The position numbers and the translations under genes were made by a program. This document shows positions 2,837 through 28,653 of a stretch of 28,653 nucleotides of DNA, piece by piece. The notes under the pieces are model-generated. The model was not told the origin of the DNA. It saw only the letters and a program-made list of their open reading frames with translations, and did no database searches. The stretch covers positions 1 to 28,653 of the forward strand of contig CAYWTX010000329.1 in the NCBI GenBank assembly GCA_964461295.1. The letters run 5' to 3'. The DNA comes from an uncultured Planctomycetaceae bacterium. GTDB taxonomy: Bacteria > Planctomycetota > Phycisphaerae > SM23-33. Each line of letters begins with the position of its first letter. Positions within the stretch are counted from its first letter, which is position 1.

Positions 2837-2998
2837 GGCTTTACCTTTCTTGGGTAGCGGGGATCATACCCGCGCGGACACGGAACGCCAAGCGGCGGCT
2901 TGGTCGATGCAAGCCGCGGACAAAGCAGGTTCTGTATGGCGGGCCGAGGCCGGCCGAAAACGACGGCACGTTCGCGCACCGCGTCGGTTAGAGGTGGT

Positions 2999-5900
2999 AT
3001 GTCAGCCAGAAGCAATGCGCATTGGATGGCGGCGTCCCTGGTGGGTTCCCTGCTGTGCTTGTCTTGCCTCGCCGCCCAGAGAGGGCCGAGCCCGGCCACG
3101 AACCCGGGGGTCGCCGCGCCCGCCTCGGCGCCGGCGAGTTCGGGGGTGAACGGACCTGACGACACGGTTGCCAAGGCCGCTCGGCTTCGCCTGGCCATTG
3201 AGGACCTCATCGCGACCTTCGGCGACCGCTACGCGCGGGGGCGCGAGTACCTCCGACGGCTCAACGCCCTGGTGGAGGGCCGCGGCCAGGAATCGCTCGA
3301 CGAACTGCGCGACCAAGCCCTGCTGGACAACCCGCTGCTCGATGACATCCAGGGACTGTTGGTCCTGGTGGGAGCGGGAGGTTCCGACGGCGGCACGATG
3401 AGTGTCAGTGCCCACATCGGTAAGGCCATCGGCCTTGTCTCGCCGGTCCGTCCCGGAAAATCAGAGACCGCGCCAGGAATGAAGATCCTGTATGAATCGA
3501 AGTTGGGGCCGGAGGAGGTCGCCAAGTACAAGTGCAAGTGGGACGCCTCCAAAGGTTCCGTCGGGTTCATCAATCTGCACTACGACGCCAGGAAATTCCT
3601 CTTCAGCGCGGCGGCAAGAAACGGATACCAGATCTTCGAGATGAACGTGGACGGCAGCGGTTTGCGGCAGGTGTCCTCGGACGAGCATCCGTACGTGGAC
3701 AACTTCGATCCTGTTTACATGCCGGACGGGCGGATTGTCTTCCTCTCCACCCGCATGTTCCAAGGGGTGCCGTGCCTGGGCGGAGAACCGCATGTCGCCA
3801 ACCTGTTCTCGATGAAGGCCGACGGCAGCGACGTGCGCCAACTCACGTTCGAACAGGACGAAGACTGGGACCCCGCCGTCATGAACGACGGCCGGGTGAT
3901 GTATGTTCGCTGGGAGTACGCCGACACGCCGCACCATCATACCCGGCTGATCTTCACCATGAACCCGGACGGAACAAACCAAAGAGCTCTGATGAAGAGC
4001 AACTCCTATTGGCCCAACGCGATCTTCTACCCAAGGCCGATCCCCAATCATGCCACCCGGTTCGTCGGCGTCATCTCGGGCCATCACGGCGGCGGCCGTT
4101 CCGGTCCCATGTACGTCTTCGATCCGGGCATGGCGAACGAGGCGTCGAGCGCGGTGGTCCAGCGTATTCCGCCCGATCCGAACGAACTGCACAAGTCGCC
4201 GCGGTGGCTGGAGGAATCATCCTATGATGGTCCTCCCCGCATGTCCTGCCCAAAGTATAGCCATCCCCACCCGCTCGCCGATGCCGAGGGGCGCGGGGCC
4301 GGCAAGTACTTCCTGGCGGGAGGGGCCGTGGTGGACGTGTTCGGCAACAGCGTCGGCCTGGCGGGCGGAGGCGCCGAGGTGGTCCCGATCCAGGTCCGAC
4401 CGCGCCCGCCGATCATCCCCGACCGGACGGATCGCACACGCAAGGACGCCCTGGTCTACCTGGCGGATATCCATCGGGGCGGCGGGCTCGAGGGCGTGCC
4501 GCGCGGCACGGTCAAGAAGTTGCGCGTGTTCGAGTATAGCTTCGGGTACCGCGATACCAAGTCCGCCGGCGAAGCGGGCAAGGGCTGGTCTGGTCCGTGG
4601 GAGCCGCATCGAATCTGGGGCACCGTACCGGTGGAAGCAGATGGTTCGGCCCATTTCCTCGTTCCGGCGATGACGCCGCTGGCCCTTCAGCCGCTGGATG
4701 CCGAAGGCAAAGCCCTGCAGGTCATGCGGAGCTGGTTTGTGGCCCAGCCGGGCGAGAGTATTTCCTGTGTTGGCTGTCACGAGCGACCCAAAGACGTTTC
4801 GTCGGGCACAATGGTAGGCGCGGCATTCCGCCGTCCTCCGAACCCGATCGAGCCCTGGTACGGCCCCCCGCGCGGCTTCGGCTTCCACCGCGAGGTCCAA
4901 CCGGTGCTCAACAAGCACTGCGCCGGCTGTCACACGGGCGCGAATGTCCCCAAGGGTGTCAGAAAGCCCAACCTGGTATCCGAGTCACTGAGGGTTTCGA
5001 CGGCCAAGAATGGCCGCACCGCCATAAACCCCAGTGACTCCTTCACGAACCTGCTTCCGTACATCCATCGTCCGTCGTCGGAGAGCGACTACGTCATGCA
5101 TCCGGCCGCCGAATTCGACGCGGACGCCAGCCCGCTGATCCAGATGCTGCGCAGCGGCCACGGCGGCGTGAAACTCGACGCCGAGAGCTGGGACCGCCTG
5201 GTCACGTGGATCGACCTGAACGCGCCGGCATTCGGCACTTGGCGGGAGGGCTGGAGCATCCCCGCGCCCCAAGGCGGCGAGGAAGACTTCAGTGAGCTGC
5301 GGAGGAAGATGCGCAGGCTCTATGCCGGCATCGATGACGATCCTGAGTCCGTGCCGTCGTCCCCGGTGGACCTGGGGCCGCCCGTTAAGCACCAGTCGCC
5401 GCCGGCGGCGCCGGTCCCCGACTGCCCGGGCTGGCCGTTCGACCCCAACGCCGCCGCGAAGATGCAGCAGACGGCCGGCGCAAGGACTTCCAGGCGCGTC
5501 GTGCTCGTGGCCGGCGAAACCGCCCGCGATGTGGTCCTCGACATGGCCCTGATCCCGGCGGGCGAGTTTATGATGGGCGCCAATGAAGGCAGGCCCGACG
5601 AGCGGCCCATGGCCCGGGTGAAGATCGACCGGCCGTTCTGGATGGGCACCTTTGAGATCACCAACCAACAATACAACCTCTTCGATCGACAACACGACAG
5701 CCGCTACCACAATCAACCTAGTTGCCACCTGGGCGGACGGGGCTGGCCCATGAATCATCCGTTGCAGCCGGTCGTGCGGGTCTCCTGGCAACAGGCGGCC
5801 GCGTTCTGCCGCTGGCTGTCGGAGAAGACAGGAGAGAAGTTCCGTCTTCCCACCGAGGCGCAGTGGGAATGGGCCTGCCGGGCCGGGTCCGACAAGCCTC

Positions 5901-6460
5901 TCTCGTTTCGTGACGGCAAGGGCGATTACGGGGCGTGGGCCAACATGGCGAACATTGGGAGTTTCAAGACCAAAACGGGGGCCACGGTCACAATACCCGC
6001 CGGTGCGAGTGAGCCGGTGACGCTGCCGCCCGGGTTCTTCAGTTGGGCCGACCAATCGGCCGCCAGGCCGTTCTCCCTGGTCGCAGAACCGGGGTCCGGG
6101 CTCATGCAGACCGTAGGGGGAATGAACAGCAAAGGTTTTGCCATGTTTGTGAGCGCCACATGGAAGTCCATGCCGCGGTACACTCCCAATCCCTGGGGGT
6201 TGCACAACATGCACGGGAACGCGGCCGAATGGACGGCCACCGCCTATCGCCCCTATCCCTATGATGGGAAAGACGGACGCAATGAGGATGGCGGGGGCCT
6301 GCGCAGAGTGGTGCGTGGCGGTTCCTGCTTTGACCTGCCCACGCATTGCACAGCCAGTGTGCGTACATCGTTCCGCAGTTGGCAGGGCGTCCACAACGTG
6401 GGATTCCGCGTCATATGTGAAGTGGTCGACCCTGGCGAGAAAGCACGGGACCAGGAGTGA
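2999..6460 (+). CDS. large secreted multidomain protein: TolB-like beta-propeller + 2x CxxCH Planctomycete cytochrome c (PSCyt1-like) + C-terminal FGE-sulfatase (SUMF1/formylglycine-generating-enzyme family) domain
   Basis: The ORF frame opens at 2900. The ATG at 2999 (M34) precedes a signal-peptide-like segment (MAASLVGSLLCLSCLAAQ) and has GAGGTGG just upstream. PD40/TolB-like repeats are present (YMPDGRIVFLS, MKADGSDVRQLT, MNDGRVMYV, MNPDGTNQRAL). There are two heme-c motifs, ISCVGCHERP and NKHCAGCHTG; the second is followed by the PSCyt1-like tail ...LVTWIDLNAPAFG. The C-terminal region (LIPAGEFMMG, RVKIDRPFWMGTFEIT, RLPTEAQWEWACRAG, GNAAEWTA, RVVRGGS) matches the FGE-sulfatase/SUMF1 domain signature. 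Confidence 0.75.
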   Translation: MSARSNAHWMAASLVGSLLCLSCLAAQRGPSPATNPGVAAPASAPASSGVNGPDDTVAKAARLRLAIEDLIATFGDRYARGREYLRRLNALVEGRGQESLDELRDQALLDNPLLDDIQGLLVLVGAGGSDGGTMSVSAHIGKAIGLVSPVRPGKSETAPGMKILYESKLGPEEVAKYKCKWDASKGSVGFINLHYDARKFLFSAAARNGYQIFEMNVDGSGLRQVSSDEHPYVDNFDPVYMPDGRIVFLSTRMFQGVPCLGGEPHVANLFSMKADGSDVRQLTFEQDEDWDPAVMNDGRVMYVRWEYADTPHHHTRLIFTMNPDGTNQRALMKSNSYWPNAIFYPRPIPNHATRFVGVISGHHGGGRSGPMYVFDPGMANEASSAVVQRIPPDPNELHKSPRWLEESSYDGPPRMSCPKYSHPHPLADAEGRGAGKYFLAGGAVVDVFGNSVGLAGGGAEVVPIQVRPRPPIIPDRTDRTRKDALVYLADIHRGGGLEGVPRGTVKKLRVFEYSFGYRDTKSAGEAGKGWSGPWEPHRIWGTVPVEADGSAHFLVPAMTPLALQPLDAEGKALQVMRSWFVAQPGESISCVGCHERPKDVSSGTMVGAAFRRPPNPIEPWYGPPRGFGFHREVQPVLNKHCAGCHTGANVPKGVRKPNLVSESLRVSTAKNGRTAINPSDSFTNLLPYIHRPSSESDYVMHPAAEFDADASPLIQMLRSGHGGVKLDAESWDRLVTWIDLNAPAFGTWREGWSIPAPQGGEEDFSELRRKMRRLYAGIDDDPESVPSSPVDLGPPVKHQSPPAAPVPDCPGWPFDPNAAAKMQQTAGARTSRRVVLVAGETARDVVLDMALIPAGEFMMGANEGRPDERPMARVKIDRPFWMGTFEITNQQYNLFDRQHDSRYHNQPSCHLGGRGWPMNHPLQPVVRVSWQQAAAFCRWLSEKTGEKFRLPTEAQWEWACRAGSDKPLSFRDGKGDYGAWANMANIGSFKTKTGATVTIPAGASEPVTLPPGFFSWADQSAARPFSLVAEPGSGLMQTVGGMNSKGFAMFVSATWKSMPRYTPNPWGLHNMHGNAAEWTATAYRPYPYDGKDGRNEDGGGLRRVVRGGSCFDLPTHCTASVRTSFRSWQGVHNVGFRVICEVVDPGEKARDQE

Positions 6461-20044: not shown

Positions 20045-21955
20045 CTACTGCCTCTTGCCGCAAGCGGGGCAGAAGCCTCCGCCGGATTCCAGGGCGGCGC
20101 CGCAGTGGCGGCACCTGGCGCCCGCGCCGATGACCACCGGCGTGCCGGCCAGGCCGGCGACCACCATCGGTTGCGGCGCGGCGCGGCGCCCGGCCGCGGC
20201 CGCCGTCACCGCCGCCACCACCTGCTCCAGCGATGTCTTCATCAGCCGCTCCATGCGGTCGGCGTGCGAATCGGCCATCTGCTTCTGGTCGGCAAGCTGT
20301 TTCTCCAACGCGGCGGCCCGCTCCCCCGAGATCGCGCCCTCGTCGCGGTACTTCTGGGTCAGCGCCCTGGCCGCCTCCGGCGAGGCCGCCGCCGCCAACG
20401 CCAGAATCTGATCCGGCGTCATGTTCTGCTGCGCACGCACCCGCTCCAGCTCGACGATCCTCTCGGCGGCCGGGCCGTCCACAATCGCCATGATCGCCCG
20501 CGACGTGCTCTTGCTCAGCGCCTCCAGCCGCGCCGCCTCACGCTTCTGCTCGCGGTCCAGCGCGTCCTGTTCAACGGCCACCGTCTCCCGCAGCAGCCGC
20601 TGGCCCAGCTCCGCCTCCGCCTTGTCCCGCGCGAACTCGTCCCACTCGACCTTCTTCTTCAGGGCGTGCTCGGCCTCCTCCTGCCGCAGCTTCTCGCCGT
20701 GCTCCAATCGGCCCATCTCCAGCCGCACCTTGCCCTGTTCGGCCTCGCCCTTTGCCGCATCCAGGCGCCGCTGAAGACCGCGCATCTGCCGTTCGTCCTG
20801 CCGCCTTTCGTCGTGCAGCAGCGCTTCCCACTGCTTGGCCCGCTCGGCGCCGTCCTGAAGCGTCTCGATCTCGATCCGCCGCAGGATGCCCTCGCGGCCG
20901 CGCTCGAACTCCAGCCTTGCCGCCAGCCGCGCCATCTCGTCGCCCCGGATGACTTCCCGGAGCCCCAGTTCGTGCTCGGTCTGGCGGATGAACTGCTCGA
21001 GGTCCTTGCCCGTCTTGAACTCGTGCATCTTGTCCGTCGAGAACGTCTCCCGCAGGCGCTGGGCCAGCCTCGTCCGCTGCTCGGTGACGTCGGCCTCGCG
21101 ATCGGCAAAGCCCGCGCTCCGCTGCTTGTCGGCCAGGTCCGCCTCCCGCCGGCGAATCCTCTCGTAGGCCTCGCCGGCGAAGCTGACGAAGCGGATCTGC
21201 ACCAGCTCCAGCCCCATGCGCCGCAGCGTGGGCGCCACCGCCTGGCGAAGGTCTTCCTCGATCCGCGCGCGGATGGCGGGGTCGGTGAACAGCCGCTCGG
21301 CAGGATGCCGGCCGGCAATGCCCGCCAGGAGCATCTGGACCTCGTCGGCAAGTTGCTGCTCCATCTCGGCGACCGTCAGGACGTTGCGGCCCTTGAACAG
21401 GTTGACGTACAGCGCGTCCATGTCGGCGATGCGAAAGACGAGCCGCTCCACGCTGCCGACCTCGATCTTGTCGGCCGTCCACAGGCCGCCGTTCTCCAGG
21501 TCGATCGTCACGTCGCCGGCGTCGATGAGGACCACGGATGCGTCCTGATCGATCATGAAATGGTTGAGCCGGTTGAGGAACCCGCCCATGTCATGCCGGC
21601 CGGCCGGCAGTTCGGCGCGGAACCTGCCGGCCTGGAAGAGCAGCGCTCGCGTACCGTGGTCGATCACCAGCGGCTTGGCCAGCCAACCCTTGACATCCTG
21701 GTTGTCCACCCGGACGGCGAAGTCGCCGTCGCGGCGCGACCAGCGGTCGTTGAGCAGCGTCGGCTTGGCCACCTGCGACAGGTCGGCGCCGCAACGCCAG
21801 CAGAACTTGCTCGTCCGGGCCACCTCCGCGGCGCAGGACCCGCACTGCGTGAGTCCCTTGGGCCCCACGGCCCCGCACTTGGGGCAGAACTGCGAGCCCT
21901 TGCGCACGCGATAGTCGCATTCCCGATTCACGCACCGGTTCGTGAACAATCCCAT
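20045..21955 (-). CDS. double zinc-ribbon + SPFH/Band-7 (flotillin/YdjI-like) domain protein with long E/R-rich coiled coil and C-terminal zinc ribbon
   Basis: 636 aa. The N-terminus has CPKCGA...CGSCAA...CWRCGA (two C-x2-C pairs). A Band_7_1/SPFH-like core follows (RHDMGGFLNRLNHFMIDQDASVVLIDAGDVTIDLENGGLWTADKIEVGSVERLVFRIADMDALYVNLFKG ... LVQIRFVSFA). It then has ~250 aa of charged coiled coil, and the C-terminal zinc ribbon is CRHCGAALESGGGFCPACGKR. AAGGAG lies at 21962-21967 (minus sense), 6 nt before the ATG. Confidence 0.7.
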   Translation of the reverse strand: MGLFTNRCVNRECDYRVRKGSQFCPKCGAVGPKGLTQCGSCAAEVARTSKFCWRCGADLSQVAKPTLLNDRWSRRDGDFAVRVDNQDVKGWLAKPLVIDHGTRALLFQAGRFRAELPAGRHDMGGFLNRLNHFMIDQDASVVLIDAGDVTIDLENGGLWTADKIEVGSVERLVFRIADMDALYVNLFKGRNVLTVAEMEQQLADEVQMLLAGIAGRHPAERLFTDPAIRARIEEDLRQAVAPTLRRMGLELVQIRFVSFAGEAYERIRRREADLADKQRSAGFADREADVTEQRTRLAQRLRETFSTDKMHEFKTGKDLEQFIRQTEHELGLREVIRGDEMARLAARLEFERGREGILRRIEIETLQDGAERAKQWEALLHDERRQDERQMRGLQRRLDAAKGEAEQGKVRLEMGRLEHGEKLRQEEAEHALKKKVEWDEFARDKAEAELGQRLLRETVAVEQDALDREQKREAARLEALSKSTSRAIMAIVDGPAAERIVELERVRAQQNMTPDQILALAAAASPEAARALTQKYRDEGAISGERAAALEKQLADQKQMADSHADRMERLMKTSLEQVVAAVTAAAAGRRAAPQPMVVAGLAGTPVVIGAGARCRHCGAALESGGGFCPACGKRQ

Positions 21956-22083: not shown

Positions 22084-22743
22084 TCACAGCGGACGCATGG
22101 CGTGTTTGATGATCCGCACGATACCGCGCAGGATCGCCATGGCGATCAGGAACGCCACCAGGGCCGCGACGATCACCAGGGGGTACCGCCAGAACTGGCT
22201 CACGGCTTCCGACCAGTGCATGTACGCGTCGCCCTCGACCGGCCCGCTGCTCCAGACGATCTGCCCGGTTTCCACGGCCGCCAGATGCACGGAGACCTTG
22301 ACGCGCCCGCGGATGCTCCACATGTTGACGGACTCATCCCAGATTCGCCCGTACAGGATCGCGCTGACGCCCTGAATCCTGCCGAACTTCTGGATCGTCG
22401 CGGCGTCCATGATGTCCTTCTGGCGAACGCCGCGCTCGATCTCCGCCACCAGCTTCTTCCACGTCTCGTCGTTCCTGGTGAACAGGCTCAGGTCGGTGCG
22501 GGTCACGGCCGTCTTCAGCAGGTTCGTGACGTACTCCTCCTTGTCGCCCTCGACAGGCAGGACGGCGACGCTGCCGGTCTTGGGGGCAAGCCGGGCCGCC
22601 CGCAGCGACTGCTCGATCTGCGCGACGGCCTTCTCCGAAGCTCGCTGGAGGGTCTCGCGCTCATTGCCCGCGGCGGGAGCGGCCAAGGCCGCCAGGACGA
22701 CCGTCGCCGCCACGCCCGCGATCGTTGCACGCGTCATCATCAT
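22084..22743 (-). CDS. periplasmic CsgG/LpoB/TolB-N-like domain protein with signal peptide and C-terminal transmembrane anchor
   Basis: 219 aa; starts at an ATGATGATG triplet. The signal peptide is MMMTRATIAGVAATVVLAALAAPAAG. The core GSVAVLPVEGDKEEYVTNLLKTAVTRTDLSLFTRNDETWKKLVAEIERG...IQKFGRIQGVSAILYGRIWDES follows the VAVLPF...L...L...F.VVER..L..I..E......A..iGk.lGAD.vl.G.I pattern of the CsgG/LpoB-like fold. The C-terminal hydrophobic helix is YPLVIVAALVAFLIAMAILRGIV. The rest of track ORF 22084-24033 upstream of Met431 is discarded. Confidence 0.5.
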   Translation of the reverse strand: MMMTRATIAGVAATVVLAALAAPAAGNERETLQRASEKAVAQIEQSLRAARLAPKTGSVAVLPVEGDKEEYVTNLLKTAVTRTDLSLFTRNDETWKKLVAEIERGVRQKDIMDAATIQKFGRIQGVSAILYGRIWDESVNMWSIRGRVKVSVHLAAVETGQIVWSSGPVEGDAYMHWSEAVSQFWRYPLVIVAALVAFLIAMAILRGIVRIIKHAMRPL

Positions 22744-22808: not shown

Positions 22809-24704
22809 TCACTTCGCTCCCCCGGGCGCCGCAGCGGCCTGCCTGGCCGCCAGGCCCCGGACCTTGCCGGCCCCGATACCCGCGGCCGCCTTGCGAAGGG
22901 CATCGACGGCTTCCTTGTCGCCGCGATCGTGCAGCAACTCGTATTTCGCCGCATACGTCCTGGCATCCCAGCCTTCCAGCGAGGCATAGTGAACGCCCCT
23001 CAGTCTGGCCAGAGCAGCGCGGAATTGCTCCGCCGCCGCCAGCGAGCCCAACTCGCCCACTTCGCAATCCAGCACGACCGGCCGTGCCGCGGCGACGGCC
23101 TTGTCGGCGGCCGAGAGCAGCTTCTCGGCCAGTTCGCCCGCGGCCGCCTTGACGGCGCTGTTGGCGGCGTCCTCCTCGCGGAGGAGACGTTCGCCCCGCT
23201 TGGCGGCCGTCGTGACGGCGGCCAGTTCCAGCCGCGCCGGATCGAGGATCCGGCCCGCCAGCGAGGCGTCGAACGAGTAGAAGTTCCCGAACTTCTCGTT
23301 GAGCTTGGCCGCGCCGCTGGTGTGCACGAAGAAGCTCGCCTCGCCCGCGACCACCCGGTAACCGGCCTTCTGCAACGCCTCGGCCAGCACCCGGCTTGCG
23401 GCGGCGGTCTTCGCCGACCCGCCCGACAACTCCAGCGTTTCCTCGCAGAGGATCCGCACGAGACGCAGCTTGTCGGCCGCTTCCTTCGCGACCGCGGCCT
23501 TCTGGACGGCTCCCAGCGTCGGCACGGGCACGACCGGGTTCATCCGCGCGGCTACCTTGACCAGCCCGCCGGCCTCGACGCAATCCGTCACGGTCACGCC
23601 CGCTCTGCCGAACTTGCCGGCCGCGGCCTCGAAAACCTTCCGGACATCCGGCGTGCCATGGGGCACGAAGGCCGTGAAGATGGCTACCCCCACCTTGCAC
23701 GACACCAGTGTGGCCGCCAGGACCGATTCCTGCCCCTTCATGTGGTCGCGAAGGGCGGCCGCATCCGCTTCGCTGGGGACGTCCGACACCGTCAACTCGA
23801 CGCGGATGGGCGCCGGCGGATTCACCCGGCCCTCCACGCGGATGGGCTTCGCGGTCGCCGTATAGGACGTCACCTCTATGCCCCGCGGGGAATGCTTCTC
23901 CAGCCCCGCCGTCAGCGAGGGGCGGAAATCCCGGGAACCGGGGGCATACGCGATCGTGAAGCTGCCCTTCCCGCCGCTGAAGGCGCCAAGCTTGACCGAC
24001 TGCACGCCGGGCAGTTTGCCGAGGTAGTCGCACAGGGCGTCGGCGGCCCTCACGTCGGCAAGATCGACCACCGTCAACGCCACGAGGATGGGTTGCGGCC
24101 GAGGCGGCGCCACAACCGGGGGCGGGGGCGGAACCGCTTCGGGCGGCTTGACCACGGGCGGCGGCGGCGGGGGCGGAACCGCTTCAGGCGGTTTGACCAC
24201 GGGCGGCGGCGGCGGGGGCGGAACCGCTTCAGGCGGTTTGACCACGGGCGGCGGCGGCGGGGGCGGAACCGCTTCGGGCGGCTTGACCACGGGCGGCGGC
24301 GGCGGGGGCGGAACCGCTTCAGGCGGCTTGACCACGGGCGGCGGCGGCGGGGGCAAGGCGGGCGCGCTCACGCCCGCCAGGACTCGGGCCGTTCGCCCGT
24401 CCACGAAGTACTTCTTGACGCTCGCGCCGCACTTGCCCAGGTTCCGGGCGAAGTACTCGTGCTGGGGGACATCGCCCCCCCTGGCGGCGATCAGGTACTC
24501 AGCCCGCCCGGTTGCCTCGTCCCAGCCTTGCAGTGCAACGCTGTCCGGCTGGAACTGTCGCGACAGGTCGGCGTGCAGCGAACTCGCCTGCTGCCGGGCG
24601 GCCACGCCGTCCACGGCGACCTCGGCCTTCCAGCCGCAACCGGCCAGGGCGCCCGCCGCCGCTACCATGAATGCCGCCTTCCACAGCGACCCTATCGGCT
24701 TCAT
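22809..24704 (-). CDS. lipoprotein with five tandem PPPPPPPVVKPPEAV repeats and a large C-terminal domain of unknown function
   Basis: The frame opens at 24788. The ATG at 24704 begins MKPIGSLWKAAFMVAAAGALAGCGW, a lipoprotein signal with lipobox LAGC. The 14-aa Pro-rich repeats are encoded by 42-bp tandem DNA repeats (24102-24353). The C-terminal ~420 aa have balanced composition and no recognisable family. Confidence 0.6.
   Translation of the reverse strand: MKPIGSLWKAAFMVAAAGALAGCGWKAEVAVDGVAARQQASSLHADLSRQFQPDSVALQGWDEATGRAEYLIAARGGDVPQHEYFARNLGKCGASVKKYFVDGRTARVLAGVSAPALPPPPPPVVKPPEAVPPPPPPPVVKPPEAVPPPPPPPVVKPPEAVPPPPPPPVVKPPEAVPPPPPPPVVKPPEAVPPPPPVVAPPRPQPILVALTVVDLADVRAADALCDYLGKLPGVQSVKLGAFSGGKGSFTIAYAPGSRDFRPSLTAGLEKHSPRGIEVTSYTATAKPIRVEGRVNPPAPIRVELTVSDVPSEADAAALRDHMKGQESVLAATLVSCKVGVAIFTAFVPHGTPDVRKVFEAAAGKFGRAGVTVTDCVEAGGLVKVAARMNPVVPVPTLGAVQKAAVAKEAADKLRLVRILCEETLELSGGSAKTAAASRVLAEALQKAGYRVVAGEASFFVHTSGAAKLNEKFGNFYSFDASLAGRILDPARLELAAVTTAAKRGERLLREEDAANSAVKAAAGELAEKLLSAADKAVAAARPVVLDCEVGELGSLAAAEQFRAALARLRGVHYASLEGWDARTYAAKYELLHDRGDKEAVDALRKAAAGIGAGKVRGLAARQAAAAPGGAK
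24102..24353 (-). repeat. tandem 42-bp coding repeat (~5.5 copies) encoding PPPPPPPVVKPPEAV
   Basis: The plus-strand unit ggcggcggcggcgggggcggaaccgcttc(a/g)ggcgg(t/c)ttgaccacg is repeated head-to-tail with only 1-2 wobble differences per copy. The coordinates were derived from the protein positions aa146-229 of the 24788 frame. Confidence 0.85.
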
Positions 24705-24798
24705 CGCCTGGTCTCCTTCTCCAGATTTCCAGAGCGTTCGTTCTTCTGCCTGCCGGTGCATCTCGCGCGTCACGGCGCCCTGCCGCACGCACGCGGAA

Positions 24799-25971
24799 TC
24801 ATGCGTTCGCCTGCTGCCATTGGCGATACCGCGCCGCCTGTTCGTCGTTGGCCTGGGGCACTGTGGCGGCCAACTCGAAATCGCCGATCGTCAGCGGGCG
24901 CACGCGAAGCCGGTAGCCCTCCACCGCACGTCGCCCCGCGTCCACATGCCGCAGCAGGTCGGGGTTCTGCTCCATCACCATCCGCTGCACGGCCGCTTCG
25001 CAGAGCTGCGCAATCCGCCGCCCCGAATGACCGTCCGTGCGCTTGACCAGTTCCTCCGCGCCGCCGCTCAGGGAGTAGCCCTTCCGGCCGATGGCGATCT
25101 CCAGTATGCCGCGCCGCACTTCGGCATCGGGCAGCGGCACGTACACGCGGCGGTCGAACCGCGAAAGAATGGCCGCGTCCAGCAGCCAGGGCAGGTTCGT
25201 CGCCGCCAGCGTGAGGATGAACGTGTCGCGCCCCTTCTCCGCCAGGCCGTCCAACTCCGCCAGCAGTGTGGCCAGCAGCCGACGTTCCGGCCCGCCGCTG
25301 TCGGCTGAGTCGCGACTGGCCGACAGGGCGTCGAACTCGTCGAAGAATACCACCGCCGGCGCGTGGCGCCGGGCTGCCGAATACAAGGCCTCCACCAGCT
25401 TCGTCGATTCGCCGAAGTACTTGCTCAGCATGTTGGACGTCTTGACGTTGAAGAACGTCGCCTCCAACTCATTGCTGGCCGCCGCGGCCAGGAGCGTCTT
25501 GCCCGTGCCCGGCTGGCCGAACAGCAGGATGTTCCTGCCGCCGGCCAGGCGGACTCCCTCGGGCCGCTCGGCCAGGGCGAAACCGTAGGACAGGCGAATC
25601 TGGTCCTTGACCTCGCCCAGTCCGGCCACGTCCACCCACGTGATGGACGTCTTCTCAATCAGGGCTTCGGCGGCGGAGGCGTATTCGTCGCCGGCGTCAT
25701 CGCCTTCCACGGCCGGGGCAGGCTTCGCCGGCTCGACGGCGGGGGCCAGGCGCAGCGACTCGGCTTCGCGGCGGTACTGTGCGGCCAGCTTCATGCGGCG
25801 CTGCTTCTCCGCCGGCGTGACCGCATAGGAGGCGTATCGCTCGGCCAGGGCGGCGCAGCCCTCGTAGGCCTCGGCGGCCGCGGCCGGCCTGCTTTCCTGG
25901 CGGAGCCCCTTCGCACGCTCCAGCCCGCGCTGTAGCGAGTCGTGCACGCTCTTGCTGAGGTCGATCCCCAT
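24799..25971 (-). CDS. Vps4/katanin/spastin-clade AAA+ ATPase with N-terminal MIT domain (Vps4/CdvC-like)
   Basis: 390 aa. The N-terminal ~75 aa form an MIT-like three-helix bundle (AEAYEGCAALAERYASYAVTPAEKQRRMKLAAQYRREAESLR; compare Vps4 ...YEEALQLYQHAVQYF...[21 protein letters not shown]). The single AAA cassette has Walker A ILLFGQPGTGKTLLAAA, Walker B VVFFDEFDAL and an SRH region. The Vps4-like C-terminal helix is LTIGDFELAATVPQANDEQAARYRQWQQ. Confidence 0.8.
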   Translation of the reverse strand: MGIDLSKSVHDSLQRGLERAKGLRQESRPAAAAEAYEGCAALAERYASYAVTPAEKQRRMKLAAQYRREAESLRLAPAVEPAKPAPAVEGDDAGDEYASAAEALIEKTSITWVDVAGLGEVKDQIRLSYGFALAERPEGVRLAGGRNILLFGQPGTGKTLLAAAASNELEATFFNVKTSNMLSKYFGESTKLVEALYSAARRHAPAVVFFDEFDALSASRDSADSGGPERRLLATLLAELDGLAEKGRDTFILTLAATNLPWLLDAAILSRFDRRVYVPLPDAEVRRGILEIAIGRKGYSLSGGAEELVKRTDGHSGRRIAQLCEAAVQRMVMEQNPDLLRHVDAGRRAVEGYRLRVRPLTIGDFELAATVPQANDEQAARYRQWQQANA

Positions 25972-26020
25972 GCGTCCTTCCTTCCGAGGCGAGCGAACCG
26001 TCCGCGCCGGCAGGCAAACA

Positions 26021-26662
26021 TCACACCGGCTCGGGCGCCTCGCCTTCCTTGTCGCTCTTGGCCAGGATCTGGTCGACCTTCTTCATTCCCGTTTCGGCGG
26101 CGGCGGGGTTCTCGACTTCCGCGCTGCGCGCTTCCTGCATCGCCGCCACGATGGCCATGGTGTCCTCGTCCTCCACGCCGGCCAGGTCCACCCCATCCGG
26201 CGACTCCATGGTCTTGAGGATCTGGGCGAACCGCTCCATCTGGAACTGCCCCTCGACCGTCGCCTGCTCGACGTACTTCTGGAGCTCGTCCAGATCCATC
26301 CTGCTGACGACGCTGCTGACGCCCAGCTCCTTGACCAGCGACTCGTTCTCCTTGATGGCCGACAGGCCCGACAGGATGCGCACTTGCCGCGAGATCATCG
26401 CGAGCTGGCGGTCCTTGCCCTTGCCCCCGGCGTCCAACTCCTTGATCTTGCGGGCGATGGCGATCTGCTGCCGTTGCGAAGTCTCGTCCTTGCCCTTGAC
26501 GAAAAGCTGCTGCTTCCGCTTCTCCAGGTCGTCCACTTCCCGTCCCACCCGCTGCTCGACCTGCTCCAGGCGCAGCCGCTCCTTGCGGAGCTCGTCGATC
26601 GTGATCTTCTGGAGGCTCTTCTTGCCCGACAGCATGCCCATCAGCTTGCCCAGCAATTCCAT
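26021..26662 (-). CDS. Snf7/CHMP4-like ESCRT-III family protein
   Basis: 213 aa. The N-terminus MELLGKLMGMLSGKK parallels CHMP4/Snf7 MSxFGKLFGxxxGK. The basic helical hairpin is ELRKERLRLEQVEQRVGREVDDLEKRKQQLFVKGKDETSQRQQIAIARKIKEL. The acidic C-terminal half is SRMDLDELQKYVEQATVEGQFQMERFAQILKTMESPDGVDLAGVEDEDTMAIVAAMQE (compare CHMP4B NMDIDKVDELMQDIADQQELAEEISTAISKPVGFGEEFDEDELMAELEELEQE). The composition and pattern are Snf7-like rather than PspA/Vipp1-like. Confidence 0.75.
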   Translation of the reverse strand: MELLGKLMGMLSGKKSLQKITIDELRKERLRLEQVEQRVGREVDDLEKRKQQLFVKGKDETSQRQQIAIARKIKELDAGGKGKDRQLAMISRQVRILSGLSAIKENESLVKELGVSSVVSRMDLDELQKYVEQATVEGQFQMERFAQILKTMESPDGVDLAGVEDEDTMAIVAAMQEARSAEVENPAAAETGMKKVDQILAKSDKEGEAPEPV

Positions 26663-26701
26663 GAGGCGCTCCTTCTTTCGCTGTCCGCCACTGTCGGCGG
26701 A

Positions 26702-28015
26702 CTACCGCTTCGATGCCACCAGCCCGATCTCCGGCAGGTCATCCACGATGAACTCGCCGGTCCTGGCCATCTCCCCGAACGCCGCGCGCATCCAGGCCTC
26801 GTGCGCCGCCGCCTTCCGCCCCGCCGCCGCCAGCGAGATGCTGTCCTTGCTCACCAACTCCTCCCGCACCGACGAAATGCACTGGCGCACCTTCTCGGCG
26901 AAGGCCGCGGGATCCAGGATCGGCAGGAATGCCGCCAGACGCTCGTCGCTCTCGTCCCGCCAACTGCGCCCGGTGTGCAAATCCACCAACGCCGCCGCCA
27001 GACGCCGGTCCCGAAAATGCCTCACGCAGGCCGCGTCGGCCACTACCGCGCCGGCGCCGGCCGTCCATCCGGTGGGCGAACCCACCAGCGACACGCGGAA
27101 GCAGTTGGCGTGCTTCGCCTCGTCCGCCATTGCGTTCAGCAGCGACAACAGCTCACACTCCGTCACCGGTTCGGCGTCGAAGCCCGCCGCCGCGATCGCG
27201 TCCACGCGACAGACGAACCGGCCCTCGATCACCAGGCACGCCTTTGGACGCCCCCATCCACCCGCCCGCAGCGTGAACCGGCTGACGGCGCCGCACGGCA
27301 GGGGGCCGCCAGCCCGCGAAGCCGCCTCGACTTCGTGCTTCACCCGCGCCTTGCGCAGCACCAACTCAAGGTTCGACAGCGGCTCGGGCAGACGTTCCAC
27401 CTGCTCCAGCCGCTGCGCGAAGCTCCTGAGGAACGTGTCCTCCGCCACCTTGACGTCTTGGCGGCATACCACCGCCCGCCCCTCCGCGCGAAGGCGGGCC
27501 ACTACCTGCTCGACCGGCTCCAGCCCCGGCGGCGCCGCCGCCGAAGCCCTTGCCGCCTCGCCGGCCGCCTGCTTCTCCCCTGCCCCCGCCGGGCCGCAAA
27601 CCGATGCCGCCGCCGGTTCGAGGGGCTTCCCCTCAGACCCTTTGCCCGACTCCTCGGCTTCCTCGTCGGGCGCCGGCGGCGCGGTCACGCACTCGTGGAT
27701 CTTCTTGATCGTCCAGCACGCCTGGCAGATGGGCTTGCCCGTCGCCTGGCAGAGACCCCCGATCGACAGCTCGCTGAGGATTCGCGCTCCGCACGCTCCG
27801 CACCGCAGCCCGCCGATGGCCGCCTCGCCTTGGACCTGCGAAACCATCAGCCGCTTCTGCCCCTCGAAGTACCCTTCCAGGTCTTCCTCGCGGATGCGAT
27901 AGACCCGGCCTATCCGCCCAGCCGGCAACTCCCCGCTCCGCACGAGGCGGTAGAGCGTCTTGTATTCCACGCCCAATTTCCTCGCCGCGTCCTCGAGTGT
28001 CAGATAGGCGCCCAT
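26702..28015 (-). CDS. helix-turn-helix (excisionase/MerR-like HTH_17) + zinc-ribbon protein with large C-terminal domain of unknown function
   Basis: 437 aa. The N-terminus is LTLEDAARKLGVEYKTLYRLVRSGELPAGRIGRVYRIREEDLEGYF (Xis/HTH_17-type DNA-binding helix-turn-helix). It is followed by CGACGARI...CQATGKPICQAC (C-x2-C ... C-x2-C), an acidic/Pro-rich linker, and a ~280-aa domain without a recognisable family. It is the first gene of the ESCRT-like cluster. Confidence 0.65.
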   Translation of the reverse strand: MGAYLTLEDAARKLGVEYKTLYRLVRSGELPAGRIGRVYRIREEDLEGYFEGQKRLMVSQVQGEAAIGGLRCGACGARILSELSIGGLCQATGKPICQACWTIKKIHECVTAPPAPDEEAEESGKGSEGKPLEPAAASVCGPAGAGEKQAAGEAARASAAAPPGLEPVEQVVARLRAEGRAVVCRQDVKVAEDTFLRSFAQRLEQVERLPEPLSNLELVLRKARVKHEVEAASRAGGPLPCGAVSRFTLRAGGWGRPKACLVIEGRFVCRVDAIAAAGFDAEPVTECELLSLLNAMADEAKHANCFRVSLVGSPTGWTAGAGAVVADAACVRHFRDRRLAAALVDLHTGRSWRDESDERLAAFLPILDPAAFAEKVRQCISSVREELVSKDSISLAAAGRKAAAHEAWMRAAFGEMARTGEFIVDDLPEIGLVASKR

Positions 28016-28282
28016 CTCCCGTCCCTTCGATTTGCCGTGCGTCCCACTTTGCGTCTAGCGGGTACATTCTCTTGCCGAAGCTTACCCCCGTCAACACTTT
28101 TGTTTACTTTTCTTACCTCTCAGTTCCTTCATTGACGACTCCGGCCACCTTCGCCCCGTTCGCGTGGCCGCCCCCATAGGGGCTCGGCCGCTTCGCGCTC
28201 GCGGTCCCCTCCCGGTCGTCCTCGTCGTCGTCGGCTGTTTCCCCTCCCTCCCGCCCACCCCGCCATCGCCCTCCCGGCGCGA

Positions 28283-28310
28283 GAAAGATGCGCCTAAAGG
28301 CGCATCTTTC
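28283..28310. promoter_or_regulatory. perfect 28-bp palindrome GAAAGATGCGCC-TAAA-GGCGCATCTTTC (candidate operator or hairpin) ~270 bp upstream of the ESCRT-like cluster start
   Basis: There are 12-bp perfect inverted arms around a 4-nt AT spacer, verified nucleotide-by-nucleotide against the 28164 frame. No U-tract follows on either strand, so an operator or structural role is as likely as a terminator. Confidence 0.5.
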
Positions 28311-28439
28311 CCGGCAAACGCGCCCCAACCCGTACCCCTCCGGCCGGAGTTCCCCTCGAAAAGTGGGCGTGTACGCACCTGTCGGCCGCGCCGCCGATGC
28401 GATACCGGCGCCAGGCGCAGGCGGCTACCCCGGGCGGCC

Positions 28440-28653
28440 AACGTAAACTGGTATAGATTGGGTTCAGTATCCGTCCTTGGATTCCTGGGAAGTGGTAGGC
28501 CCGGCGGGCCGGCATCGGGTAGCCCCGTCCGTAAGGGCGGGGATTGCGAGCAAAGCGAACCGAAGAGGCCCGGCGGGCCGACAGAGCACGCCCGTCGACG
28601 GTGGACAAGCCGGCACCTGTGCCGGCCCTCCGGGCCTTGACCGTTTCCTGGCT
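28440..28653. other. GC-rich structured non-coding region (GNRA-capped hairpin, direct repeats), truncated by window edge; possible ncRNA or REP-like element
   Basis: Hairpin ccccgucc-GUAA-gggcgggg (28523-28542) has an 8-bp stem with one G-U wobble and a GNRA tetraloop. A 15-nt direct repeat aggcccggcgggccg lies at 28497-28511 and 28566-28580. Hairpin gccggca-ccug-ugccggc lies at 28609-28626. The only ORF here (28164-28640) is R/P/G-rich low-complexity and is judged non-coding. Confidence 0.3.

Follow-up and report, generated by a model that had tools for sequence, protein, structure and literature searches.

What does a DNA-binding protein whose C-terminal part matches no recognised family do at the head of a bacterial gene cluster resembling the ESCRT-III/Vps4 machinery? 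The question is raised by contig CAYWTX010000329.1 of an uncultured Planctomycetaceae bacterium, which we analysed over its entire length of 28,653 bp and refer to as the window. The cluster lies on the minus strand in the order HTH-MOD, predicted ESCRT-III-like protein E3, Vps4-like AAA ATPase, Pro-rich putative lipoprotein, LpoB-like protein and SPFH-zinc-ribbon protein. Its first gene encodes the 437-aa protein considered here, in which a helix-turn-helix (HTH) head and a zinc-binding domain precede a module that we label MOD, comprising an alpha/beta domain and a C-terminal winged helix. A reading of the sequence alone had cast this protein either as a CdvA-like adaptor or as a dedicated regulator of the cluster. 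We favour, at a probability of roughly one half, the answer that it is a dedicated and probably autoregulated transcription regulator of its own operon, in which MOD provides the link to E3 and the AAA ATPase in a manner reminiscent of the phage shock protein (Psp) response.

The open reading frame (ORF) is real as judged by its codon bias, with a GC content of 0.87 at codon position 3 (GC3) versus 0.52 at codon position 2, and the protein has 35 full-length homologues with identities of 31–58%. Its JGI product name is ‘excisionase family DNA binding protein’. An AlphaFold2 (AF2) model built on the homologues, with a mean predicted local distance difference test score (pLDDT) of 86.5, divides the protein into five parts: HTH, Zn domain, linker, alpha/beta domain and C-terminal winged helix (Table 1). 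The excisionase/MerR-type HTH seen in the sequence-only reading is borne out by matches to Pfam HTH_17 (PF12728, aa 4–53; E=2.6e-16, 60.1 bits versus a cutoff of 27) and, on the same HTH, to NCBIfam TIGR01764 ‘excise’ (E=7e-14, 51.9 bits versus a cutoff of 28.8). As judged from these profiles, membership of the HTH_17 family is limited to the first 50 residues. In the AF2 model the HTH (aa 4–64) adopts a beta-alpha-alpha-beta-beta-alpha fold, with strands at 4–6, 33–35 and 38–42 and helices at 7–14, 18–26 and 43–64, and its nearest solved folds in Foldseek are the RacA DNA-binding domain (5i44), BldC (6ama) and Pukovnik Xis (4j2n), with template modelling (TM) scores to the target of 0.65–0.79.

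The C-x2-C...C-x2-C zinc motif noted earlier also holds, since C72-x2-C75 and C97-x2-C100, together with C89, are invariant across the 35 homologues. Eight ligands (C72, C75, C89, C92, C97, C100, C109 and H112) are present in 24 of the 35 sequences, and C92 and H112 are lost together in the clade of the window protein. This pattern suggests that the ancestral finger was a two-zinc, cross-braced one, of whose second site C89 and C109 would be relics in the window protein; given the joint loss of C92 and H112, the window protein probably binds a single zinc ion, at the C72/C75/C97/C100 site.

The remainder of the protein, previously described as a region of ~280 aa without a recognisable family, resolves into a linker predicted to be disordered (aa ~113–165) and the two domains of MOD. 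Structure prediction and fold search of the C-terminal part gave a confident model, and the alpha/beta domain (aa 166–357) drew a blank in Pfam, NCBIfam and PADLOC as well as among PDB sequences and folds. Since this part shows no match to a common enzyme or sensor family, it does not refute the adaptor idea. The C-terminal winged helix weakly resembles MarR/ArsR-type winged HTH DNA-binding domains (PDB 6pcp, E=0.011; Pfam MarR_2, E=0.0028 in 2 of 27 members), and a profile of the whole module retrieved nothing from PDB sequences and Pfam beyond these weak MarR-like matches. Nuclease, RNase H-like, CARF and REC patterns, compared by eye with the conserved residues and strand order of MOD, do not fit either. 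Across 146 cluster representatives the conserved residues of MOD are E192, P212, P240, G278, D280, S313, T315, G316, W317, L343, D345, D357 and R359, which include the motifs S313-P-T315-G316-W317, L343-x-D345 and D357-x-R359; the polar cluster among them could be a partner-binding, ligand or catalytic site.

Further evidence on the role of the protein comes from the company that MOD keeps. A profile of aa 165–437 run against 1.84 billion cluster representatives found MOD in 483 protein clusters at E<=1e-3 (110 at E<=1e-30), in all of them at the C-terminus. Length classes, Pfam scans and look-ups distinguish four architectures: HTH+Zn+MOD, as in the window; a zf-HC2 anti-sigma finger with a Ser/Thr kinase and MOD, encoded directly after an extracytoplasmic function (ECF) sigma gene (loci L033 and L034); an unknown or coiled-coil N-terminus with MOD (L035); and MOD alone (L040). 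A gene of the ~210-aa E3 family lies directly downstream in every architecture (profile E 8e-15 to 2e-89), being the next gene in 4/4 of the non-HTH loci, and an AAA ATPase gene comes after E3 wherever the contig continues. Because the HTH, the anti-sigma finger and the kinase are all output devices and E3/AAA is the constant neighbour, MOD is best read as an input domain.

Approximately 70 non-redundant loci were gathered by scanning GTDB genomes and, with the full-length alignment, JGI metagenomes, and by exact look-ups, and were annotated with local profiles of the window’s proteins. Full-length relatives occur in metagenome-assembled genomes of Planctomycetota (Phycisphaerae, Tepidisphaerales and others) and, at 27–30% identity, of Chloroflexota. 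Thirty-five HTH-MOD loci with >=500 nt of downstream sequence were assessable. E3 is the next gene in 20 of them, usually with the AAA ATPase then following; eight (‘type B’) lead straight to the Pro-rich/LpoB-like/SPFH set with no adjacent E3/AAA pair; two have cluster genes nearby and five have none of these genes. The gene seldom occurs without the cluster, whose genes accompany it in 30/35 loci, a result that leaves the adaptor idea unweakened. Twenty assessable loci encode short proteins of 123–206 aa that consist of HTH+Zn only; in 15 of these loci such a protein is followed by Pro-rich, LpoB-like or SPFH genes, and in none of the 20 does an E3 gene adjoin it. The association of MOD presence with E3 adjacency (20/35 versus 0/20) gives a Fisher p of ~7e-6, an indicative value that carries no phylogenetic correction. 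The head and MOD track different gene sets, and the 437-aa protein therefore unites two units of linkage, one formed by the HTH+Zn head with the lipoprotein/LpoB/SPFH genes and the other by MOD with E3 and the AAA ATPase. The window carries the complete set of both. Gene context accordingly speaks strongly for the earlier proposal of a dedicated third partner of the ESCRT-III-like/AAA pair.

The HTH gene is the first, co-directional gene of the cluster in all loci, and no terminator separates it from E3, which starts 39 nt beyond it as had been noted. Upstream of it we found a sigma-70-like promoter, the sole promoter-like site in 25900–28653, where shuffled sequences lead one to expect 0.1. 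Its -35 box is abutted by an A-rich polypurine tract that is 80% purine on the coding strand, ranks in the top 0.01% of the contig’s 40-nt windows and is unique there by this measure. This promoter element is conserved: 19 of 21 HTH(+Zn) loci have an equivalent tract 80–155 nt ahead of the start codon, each time in the top 0.01–0.7% of the 40-nt windows of its locus, as against 0/4 of the non-HTH MOD loci. A strict GTAA-N5-7-GTAA repeat is not enriched (11 found versus 10.9 expected overall), so we retain the tract as a candidate operator on its location and composition alone. The 28-bp palindrome at 28283–28310, suggested earlier as a target of the HTH, is real, its arms in fact spanning 28280–28313. 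As a binding site it did not hold up: no comparable palindrome occurs upstream of 15 homologous genes, for which reason we rejected it as a conserved operator, and it is more likely a terminator-like hairpin or local element. The anti-sigma/kinase and ECF sigma partners of MOD, the conserved A-rich element and the position of the gene at the head of the operon make a regulator a better fit to the evidence than an adaptor.

From these features we infer the following mechanism. The HTH_17 head, possibly aided by the Zn domain, would bind the GTAA/AAAG words of the tract next to its own -35 box, and MOD would serve as the signal-receiving part, sensing what state the E3/AAA machine is in; the simplest way would be for it to bind free E3. 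In the direction of regulation that this implies, operon output would track membrane demand, following the logic of PspA-PspF or PspA-ClgR. Classical MerR proteins dimerise through a long coiled-coil helix and have a C-terminal effector pocket, both directly after the winged HTH, and their operator lies in a promoter spacer of 19–20 bp. The window protein differs from them in that it has only a 22-residue helix (aa 43–64), placed before the Zn domain, and a promoter spacer of 17 nt. It is closer to BldC, RacA and Xis, which share the fold of its N-terminal 60 aa at 28–30% identity over 50–59 aligned columns and which bind repeated DNA sites, some as head-to-tail multimers, as BldC does on direct repeats (PMC5859096); the window’s HTH may bind repeated sites in the same way. 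Those relatives are small, or have a coiled coil with a DivIVA-binding tail, and unlike the window protein they have no Zn domain, MOD or link to an ESCRT-III-like gene.

Psp systems offer a further comparison. PspA binds and controls its own transcription factor, PspF or ClgR (PMC7619361, PMC11237479), and in B. subtilis it works with SPFH and zinc-ribbon partners (PMC8581546). As there, the window pairs an effector apparently of the ESCRT-III superfamily with a dedicated transcription regulator; its operon includes SPFH and zinc-ribbon proteins, like YdjI and YdjG of the B. subtilis pspA-ydjGHI operon; one MOD architecture involves an ECF sigma/anti-sigma pair, and pspA-ydjGHI is under sigma-W control; and the feedback of effector state on the regulator that we propose has its precedent in the same systems (PMC7619361, PMC11237479, PMC8581546). 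There are also differences. The window regulator is not PspF, having HTH_17, a Zn domain and an unannotated module in place of a sigma-54 AAA+ domain or a Cro-type HTH; sequence comparison does not reveal E3 as a PspA or Snf7 protein; and the window operon includes a Vps4-like classic AAA ATPase.

Several points weigh against a dedicated regulator coupled to E3. The eight full-length HTH-MOD loci that lead straight to the lipoprotein/LpoB/SPFH genes suggest that MOD may sense something other than E3, and the contact between MOD and E3 is itself drawn from gene context. The MOD of L040 stands alone and so cannot act as a classical HTH_17 regulator. E192, D280, S313, T315, D345 and D357 are conserved and might belong to a ligand-binding or enzymatic site, and E3 is assigned to ESCRT-III from a predicted fold whose Foldseek E-values are non-significant. 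Finally, the polypurine tract could be the plain UP element of a strong promoter, and its control set consists of four non-HTH loci only.

An alternative that we consider unlikely is a structural adaptor or nucleator: MOD would recruit or nucleate the E3 polymer for remodelling by the AAA ATPase, as an analogue of CdvA, ESCRT-II or a RacA-like tether; anchored to DNA by the HTH-Zn head, it would couple nucleoid and membrane, and the other architectures would swap in a different targeting domain. CdvA is reported to bind DNA and recruit polymer; its hallmarks are an N-terminal PRC-barrel and a C-terminal ESCRT-III-binding (E3B) peptide, for which the CdvB winged helix is the docking site. ESCRT-II (Vps22/Vps25/Vps36) presents tandem winged-helix domains that bind ESCRT-III. 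The resemblance in gene order is genuine, as the MOD-E3-AAA triad repeats that of cdvA-cdvB-cdvC across four architectures. HTH-MOD sits directly upstream of ESCRT-III-like and Vps4-like genes in the window and many relatives, as a third, lineage-specific partner of the pair, and a stand-alone MOD precedes E3-AAA without a DNA-binding head. RacA, the best structural neighbour of the HTH, is a chromosome anchor (PMC4914108). The proposed kinship with CdvA nevertheless fails at the level of the protein, which has none of its defining features: the N-terminus is HTH_17, with no PRC match in Pfam or AF2, a long helical hairpin region is absent, the C-terminus is a folded winged helix rather than an E3B-type peptide, E3 has no winged helix that could take such a peptide, sequence and fold similarity are lacking, and the system is bacterial, not archaeal. 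Matches to the ESCRT-II fold are indistinguishable from hundreds of generic winged-helix matches, and no membrane-binding segment is evident in the 437-aa sequence. A Ser/Thr kinase with an anti-sigma finger, encoded next to an ECF sigma gene, is moreover a signalling device and not a targeting domain, and the HTH-Zn head on its own tracks the SPFH set as the leading gene of the operon, the behaviour expected of a regulator.

We give similarly low credence to a one-component regulator with an independent sensor, in which MOD would perceive a small molecule, phosphorylation or an envelope signal, or be enzymatic, without contacting E3 or the ATPase, and MOD-E3 adjacency would be mere linkage of regulator and target. 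The type-B loci, with no adjacent E3, are readily accommodated in this way, the polar cluster of E192, D280, S313/T315, D345, D357 and R359 resembles a ligand or metal site, and Ser/Thr kinases, FHA domains and PP2C phosphatase feature heavily in the clusters. However, MOD matches no known ligand-binding or enzyme family, and MOD and E3 stay together despite a complete change of the N-terminal output domain, E3 never accompanying heads that have no MOD, which argues for a tie closer than that of a generic sensor.

A mobile-element or defence protein in an incidental location (an excisionase/recombination directionality factor, an AbiEi-like antitoxin or a MADS mad1-like protein) is very improbable and was rejected, since the excisionase-family HTH and the weak matches to AbiEi_4 (E=3e-6), MADS mad1 (E=7e-9, PADLOC) and the IS607 HTH are all confined to ~45 aa of an HTH in a 437-aa multidomain protein, whereas a functional excisionase is small, stands alone and is encoded beside an integrase in a mobile element, the window’s large ORFs include no integrase, toxin or methylase, PADLOC returned generic HTH and AAA models only (nothing for E3, the Pro-rich, LpoB-like or SPFH proteins, and family-level matches of the AAA ATPase to IetA and TRIP13 ATPases), and the gene instead keeps synteny with its cluster across Planctomycetota and Chloroflexota down to 27% identity.

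Table 1. Features of the window discussed in the text
Feature	Position	Strand	Details
HTH-MOD gene	26702..28015	-	437 aa, ATG start; stop codon 26702-26704
HTH_17 (excisionase/MerR-superfamily) winged helix-turn-helix	27857..28006	-	aa 4-53, Pfam PF12728; then helix aa 43-64
Cys-rich zinc-binding domain	27680..27808	-	aa 70-112; pLDDT >90
Linker	27521..27679	-	aa 113-165, Ala/Pro/Glu-rich, low-complexity, gappy unconserved alignment, pLDDT 40-53
Alpha/beta domain of MOD	26945..27520	-	aa 166-357 (~190 aa); AF2 pLDDT mostly >90
C-terminal winged helix of MOD	26705..26944	-	aa 358-437; AF2
E3	26021..26662	-	213 aa, all-helical; ATG 39 nt past HTH-MOD stop codon
AAA ATPase	24799..25971	-	390 aa, classic clade, Vps4/CdvC-like; Pfam AAA E=4e-34
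Pro-rich repeat protein	22809..24788	-	659 aa; operon member; homologues follow HTH genes in type-B loci
LpoB-like protein	22084..22701	-	205 aa; Pfam LpoB E=1.6e-4, just under cutoff; conserved in clusters
Double zinc ribbon / SPFH (Band_7) / zinc ribbon protein	20045..21955	-	636 aa; Pfam Zn_Ribbon_1, DZR, Band_7, Zn_ribbon_3
Sigma-70-like promoter	28066..28094	-	TTGACG, 17 nt spacer, GAGAAT; ends 51 nt 5′ of ATG
A-rich polypurine tract	28097..28136	-	abuts -35 box; GGTAA/AGTAA/AAAGT words; candidate operator or UP-like element
Palindrome	28280..28313		arms 28280-28295 and 28298-28313, 16 nt each, 2-nt gap, 94% complementary; 265-298 nt upstream of ATG

The ESCRT-like character of the cluster depends on the two genes that follow HTH-MOD. 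AF2 models E3 with helices at 2–12, 22–59, 63–113, 115–121, 124–152, 164–182 and 188–206 and a hairpin of pLDDT >90, a topology like that of ESCRT-III: alpha0, a long alpha1/alpha2-3 hairpin and then three or four shorter helices, without a winged helix. Seven of the top 10 Foldseek matches are ESCRT-III, PspA or Vipp1 structures (CHMP2A/3, Loki CHMP4-7, Vipp1, CdvB2, PspA and Snf7 among the top matches), all with E >=0.4 and a high root-mean-square deviation. The earlier label ‘Snf7-like’ is therefore only partly supported, by model topology and by the ranking of these non-significant matches, but not by sequence. A Pfam scan of 50 family members found no Snf7 (PF03357) or PspA_IM30 (PF04012) match at E<=5, no link to either emerged from two PDB profile searches or from the 138 matches of a broadened profile among 5.8 billion proteins, and approximate sequences of Snf7, PspA and CHMP1B gave nothing in hhalign. 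Against a ‘197-aa Snf7-like’ family of sister loci, hhalign gave E=0.037, collinear over 158 columns. The context is ESCRT-like, and together with the predicted fold it suggests an ESCRT-III identity for E3.

For the AAA ATPase the best NCBIfam match is CdvC at 163.7 bits, far below the cutoff and tied with PAN and CDC48. Pfam detects the diagnostic Vps4_C domain above its cutoff in the orthologues of L029 (21.4 bits), L031 (22.7) and L035 (32.0) and not in the window’s own protein. An N-terminal MIT domain has no Pfam match; the first ~75 aa look like three helices by eye, and the orthologues give only weak TPR-like matches.

Several sister loci contain a second pair of this kind (L031 15460–17165, L004 5247–6980 and L002 15955–17699; also L077, L092, L079, L081 and L089), which the window does not have. 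Its first member, 196–200 aa long, begins with MGLFKSK and matches Pfam Snf7 weakly over nearly the full length (E=0.0047); its second is an AAA ATPase (AAA-2) with Vps4_C at 24.8–25.3 bits in L031 and L004 and at 14.8, below the cutoff, in L002. In five loci the pair lies directly upstream of short HTH-Zn genes.

The genes beyond the ATPase belong to the set that follows the HTH-Zn head. In the Pro-rich protein an internal M29 (~24704) is followed by a signal peptide with the lipobox LAGC, and it is therefore probably a lipoprotein that starts at M29 and has a Pro-rich spacer. A 45-nt tandem repeat at 24117–24354 (5.3 copies, 96% matching) encodes PPPPPPPVVKPPEAV five times in this protein. 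The LpoB-like protein has an N-terminal signal-like segment and a C-terminal hydrophobic segment. The SPFH-zinc-ribbon gene is the last conserved gene of the cluster and is kept beside HTH genes.

The window encodes a 1186-aa FGE-sulfatase + HZS_alpha-domain protein at 2900–6460, Ser/Thr kinase-FGE-sulfatase fusions occur in many sister loci, and in L001 (5715–8062 and flanks) the cluster is flanked by FGE-sulfatase/kinase genes with bAvd genes, accessory to diversity-generating retroelements, beside them. The Chloroflexota loci L014 (1344–4638, minus strand) and L016 (3874–5047) carry, upstream of the HTH gene, a divergent PP2C phosphatase gene with a kinase-PD40 gene and an M48 peptidase gene, respectively. 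The promoter of the latter has GGTAA words at 11-nt spacing around a TTGACA box and resembles the tract found upstream of HTH genes.

In the closest relatives, L029 and L031, FHA-domain genes lie ahead of the HTH gene; in the window, the ~640 nt upstream of it (28016–28653) contain no convincing ORF, and no remnant of such genes was found there. Gaps of 350–540 nt occur upstream of the HTH gene in L029 and L031 as well. The minus strand at 28497–28542 matches the Rfam Acido-Lenti-1 sRNA motif (RF01687) over the full model length, at 34.8 bits versus a gathering score of 37 (E=2e-6 in 354 nt searched). Overlapping this match, a GC-rich 18-nt word, AGGCCCGGCGGGCCGGCA, occurs three times, at 28497–28514, 28566–28583 and 28620–28637. 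The motif is also present, at 38 bits, elsewhere in L029 (17999–18044 and 18058–18101), and because of this different placing it looks like a dispersed element that is not tied to the HTH gene.

A literature search found no description of MOD or of the cluster, including in surveys of archaeal ESCRT systems (PMC10936438), Psp systems (PMC11237479) and conflict systems of multicellular prokaryotes (PMC7159879). We rate the 437-aa protein as a regulator or partner of an ESCRT-III-type system with an undescribed domain family. The archaeal ESCRT loci resemble the window in having FHA, Ser/Thr kinase, SPFH-zinc ribbon and winged-helix proteins around an ESCRT-III/Vps4 core, and differ in being archaeal and in having recognisable Snf7 and Vps4 genes (PMC10936438). 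Makarova et al. 2024 described ESCRT components as not identifiable in bacteria and reported no HTH link to bacterial ESCRT-like loci (PMC10936438), a 2025 review noted that a Vps4-like ATPase appears absent from bacterial systems (PMC7619361), and the Psp survey recorded sporadic bacterial PspA/Snf7-AAA links and transfers of Vps4-like ATPases (PMC11237479).

Recent reviews hold that bacterial PspA and Vipp1 work without a Vps4-like ATPase and that no ESCRT parts beyond ESCRT-III are identifiable in bacteria. The window and ~70 relatives present a conserved bacterial cluster in which a dedicated MOD protein accompanies an ESCRT-III-like protein, a Vps4-like AAA ATPase and an SPFH-zinc-ribbon protein. 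It is a speculative proposal, and one to which we attach little weight at present, that MOD is the missing third part of a bacterial ESCRT-like machine, acting with the ESCRT-III-like polymer and the Vps4-like ATPase as a counterpart of CdvA or ESCRT-II. If this is true, MOD would nucleate the polymer or read its state and would wire it to DNA, to an ECF sigma/kinase pathway or to other targets, and Planctomycetota and Chloroflexota would own a regulated, ATP-driven ESCRT-type system of membrane remodelling that arose or was retained outside archaea and eukaryotes. Should MOD bind or sense the polymer, it would offer a direct handle on the control of such a machine in bacteria, through one protein, one promoter and one partner, as well as a fresh comparison point for the origin of ESCRT adaptors. 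Were the protein merely a transcription factor, it would still be an entry point to the signal that induces the system.

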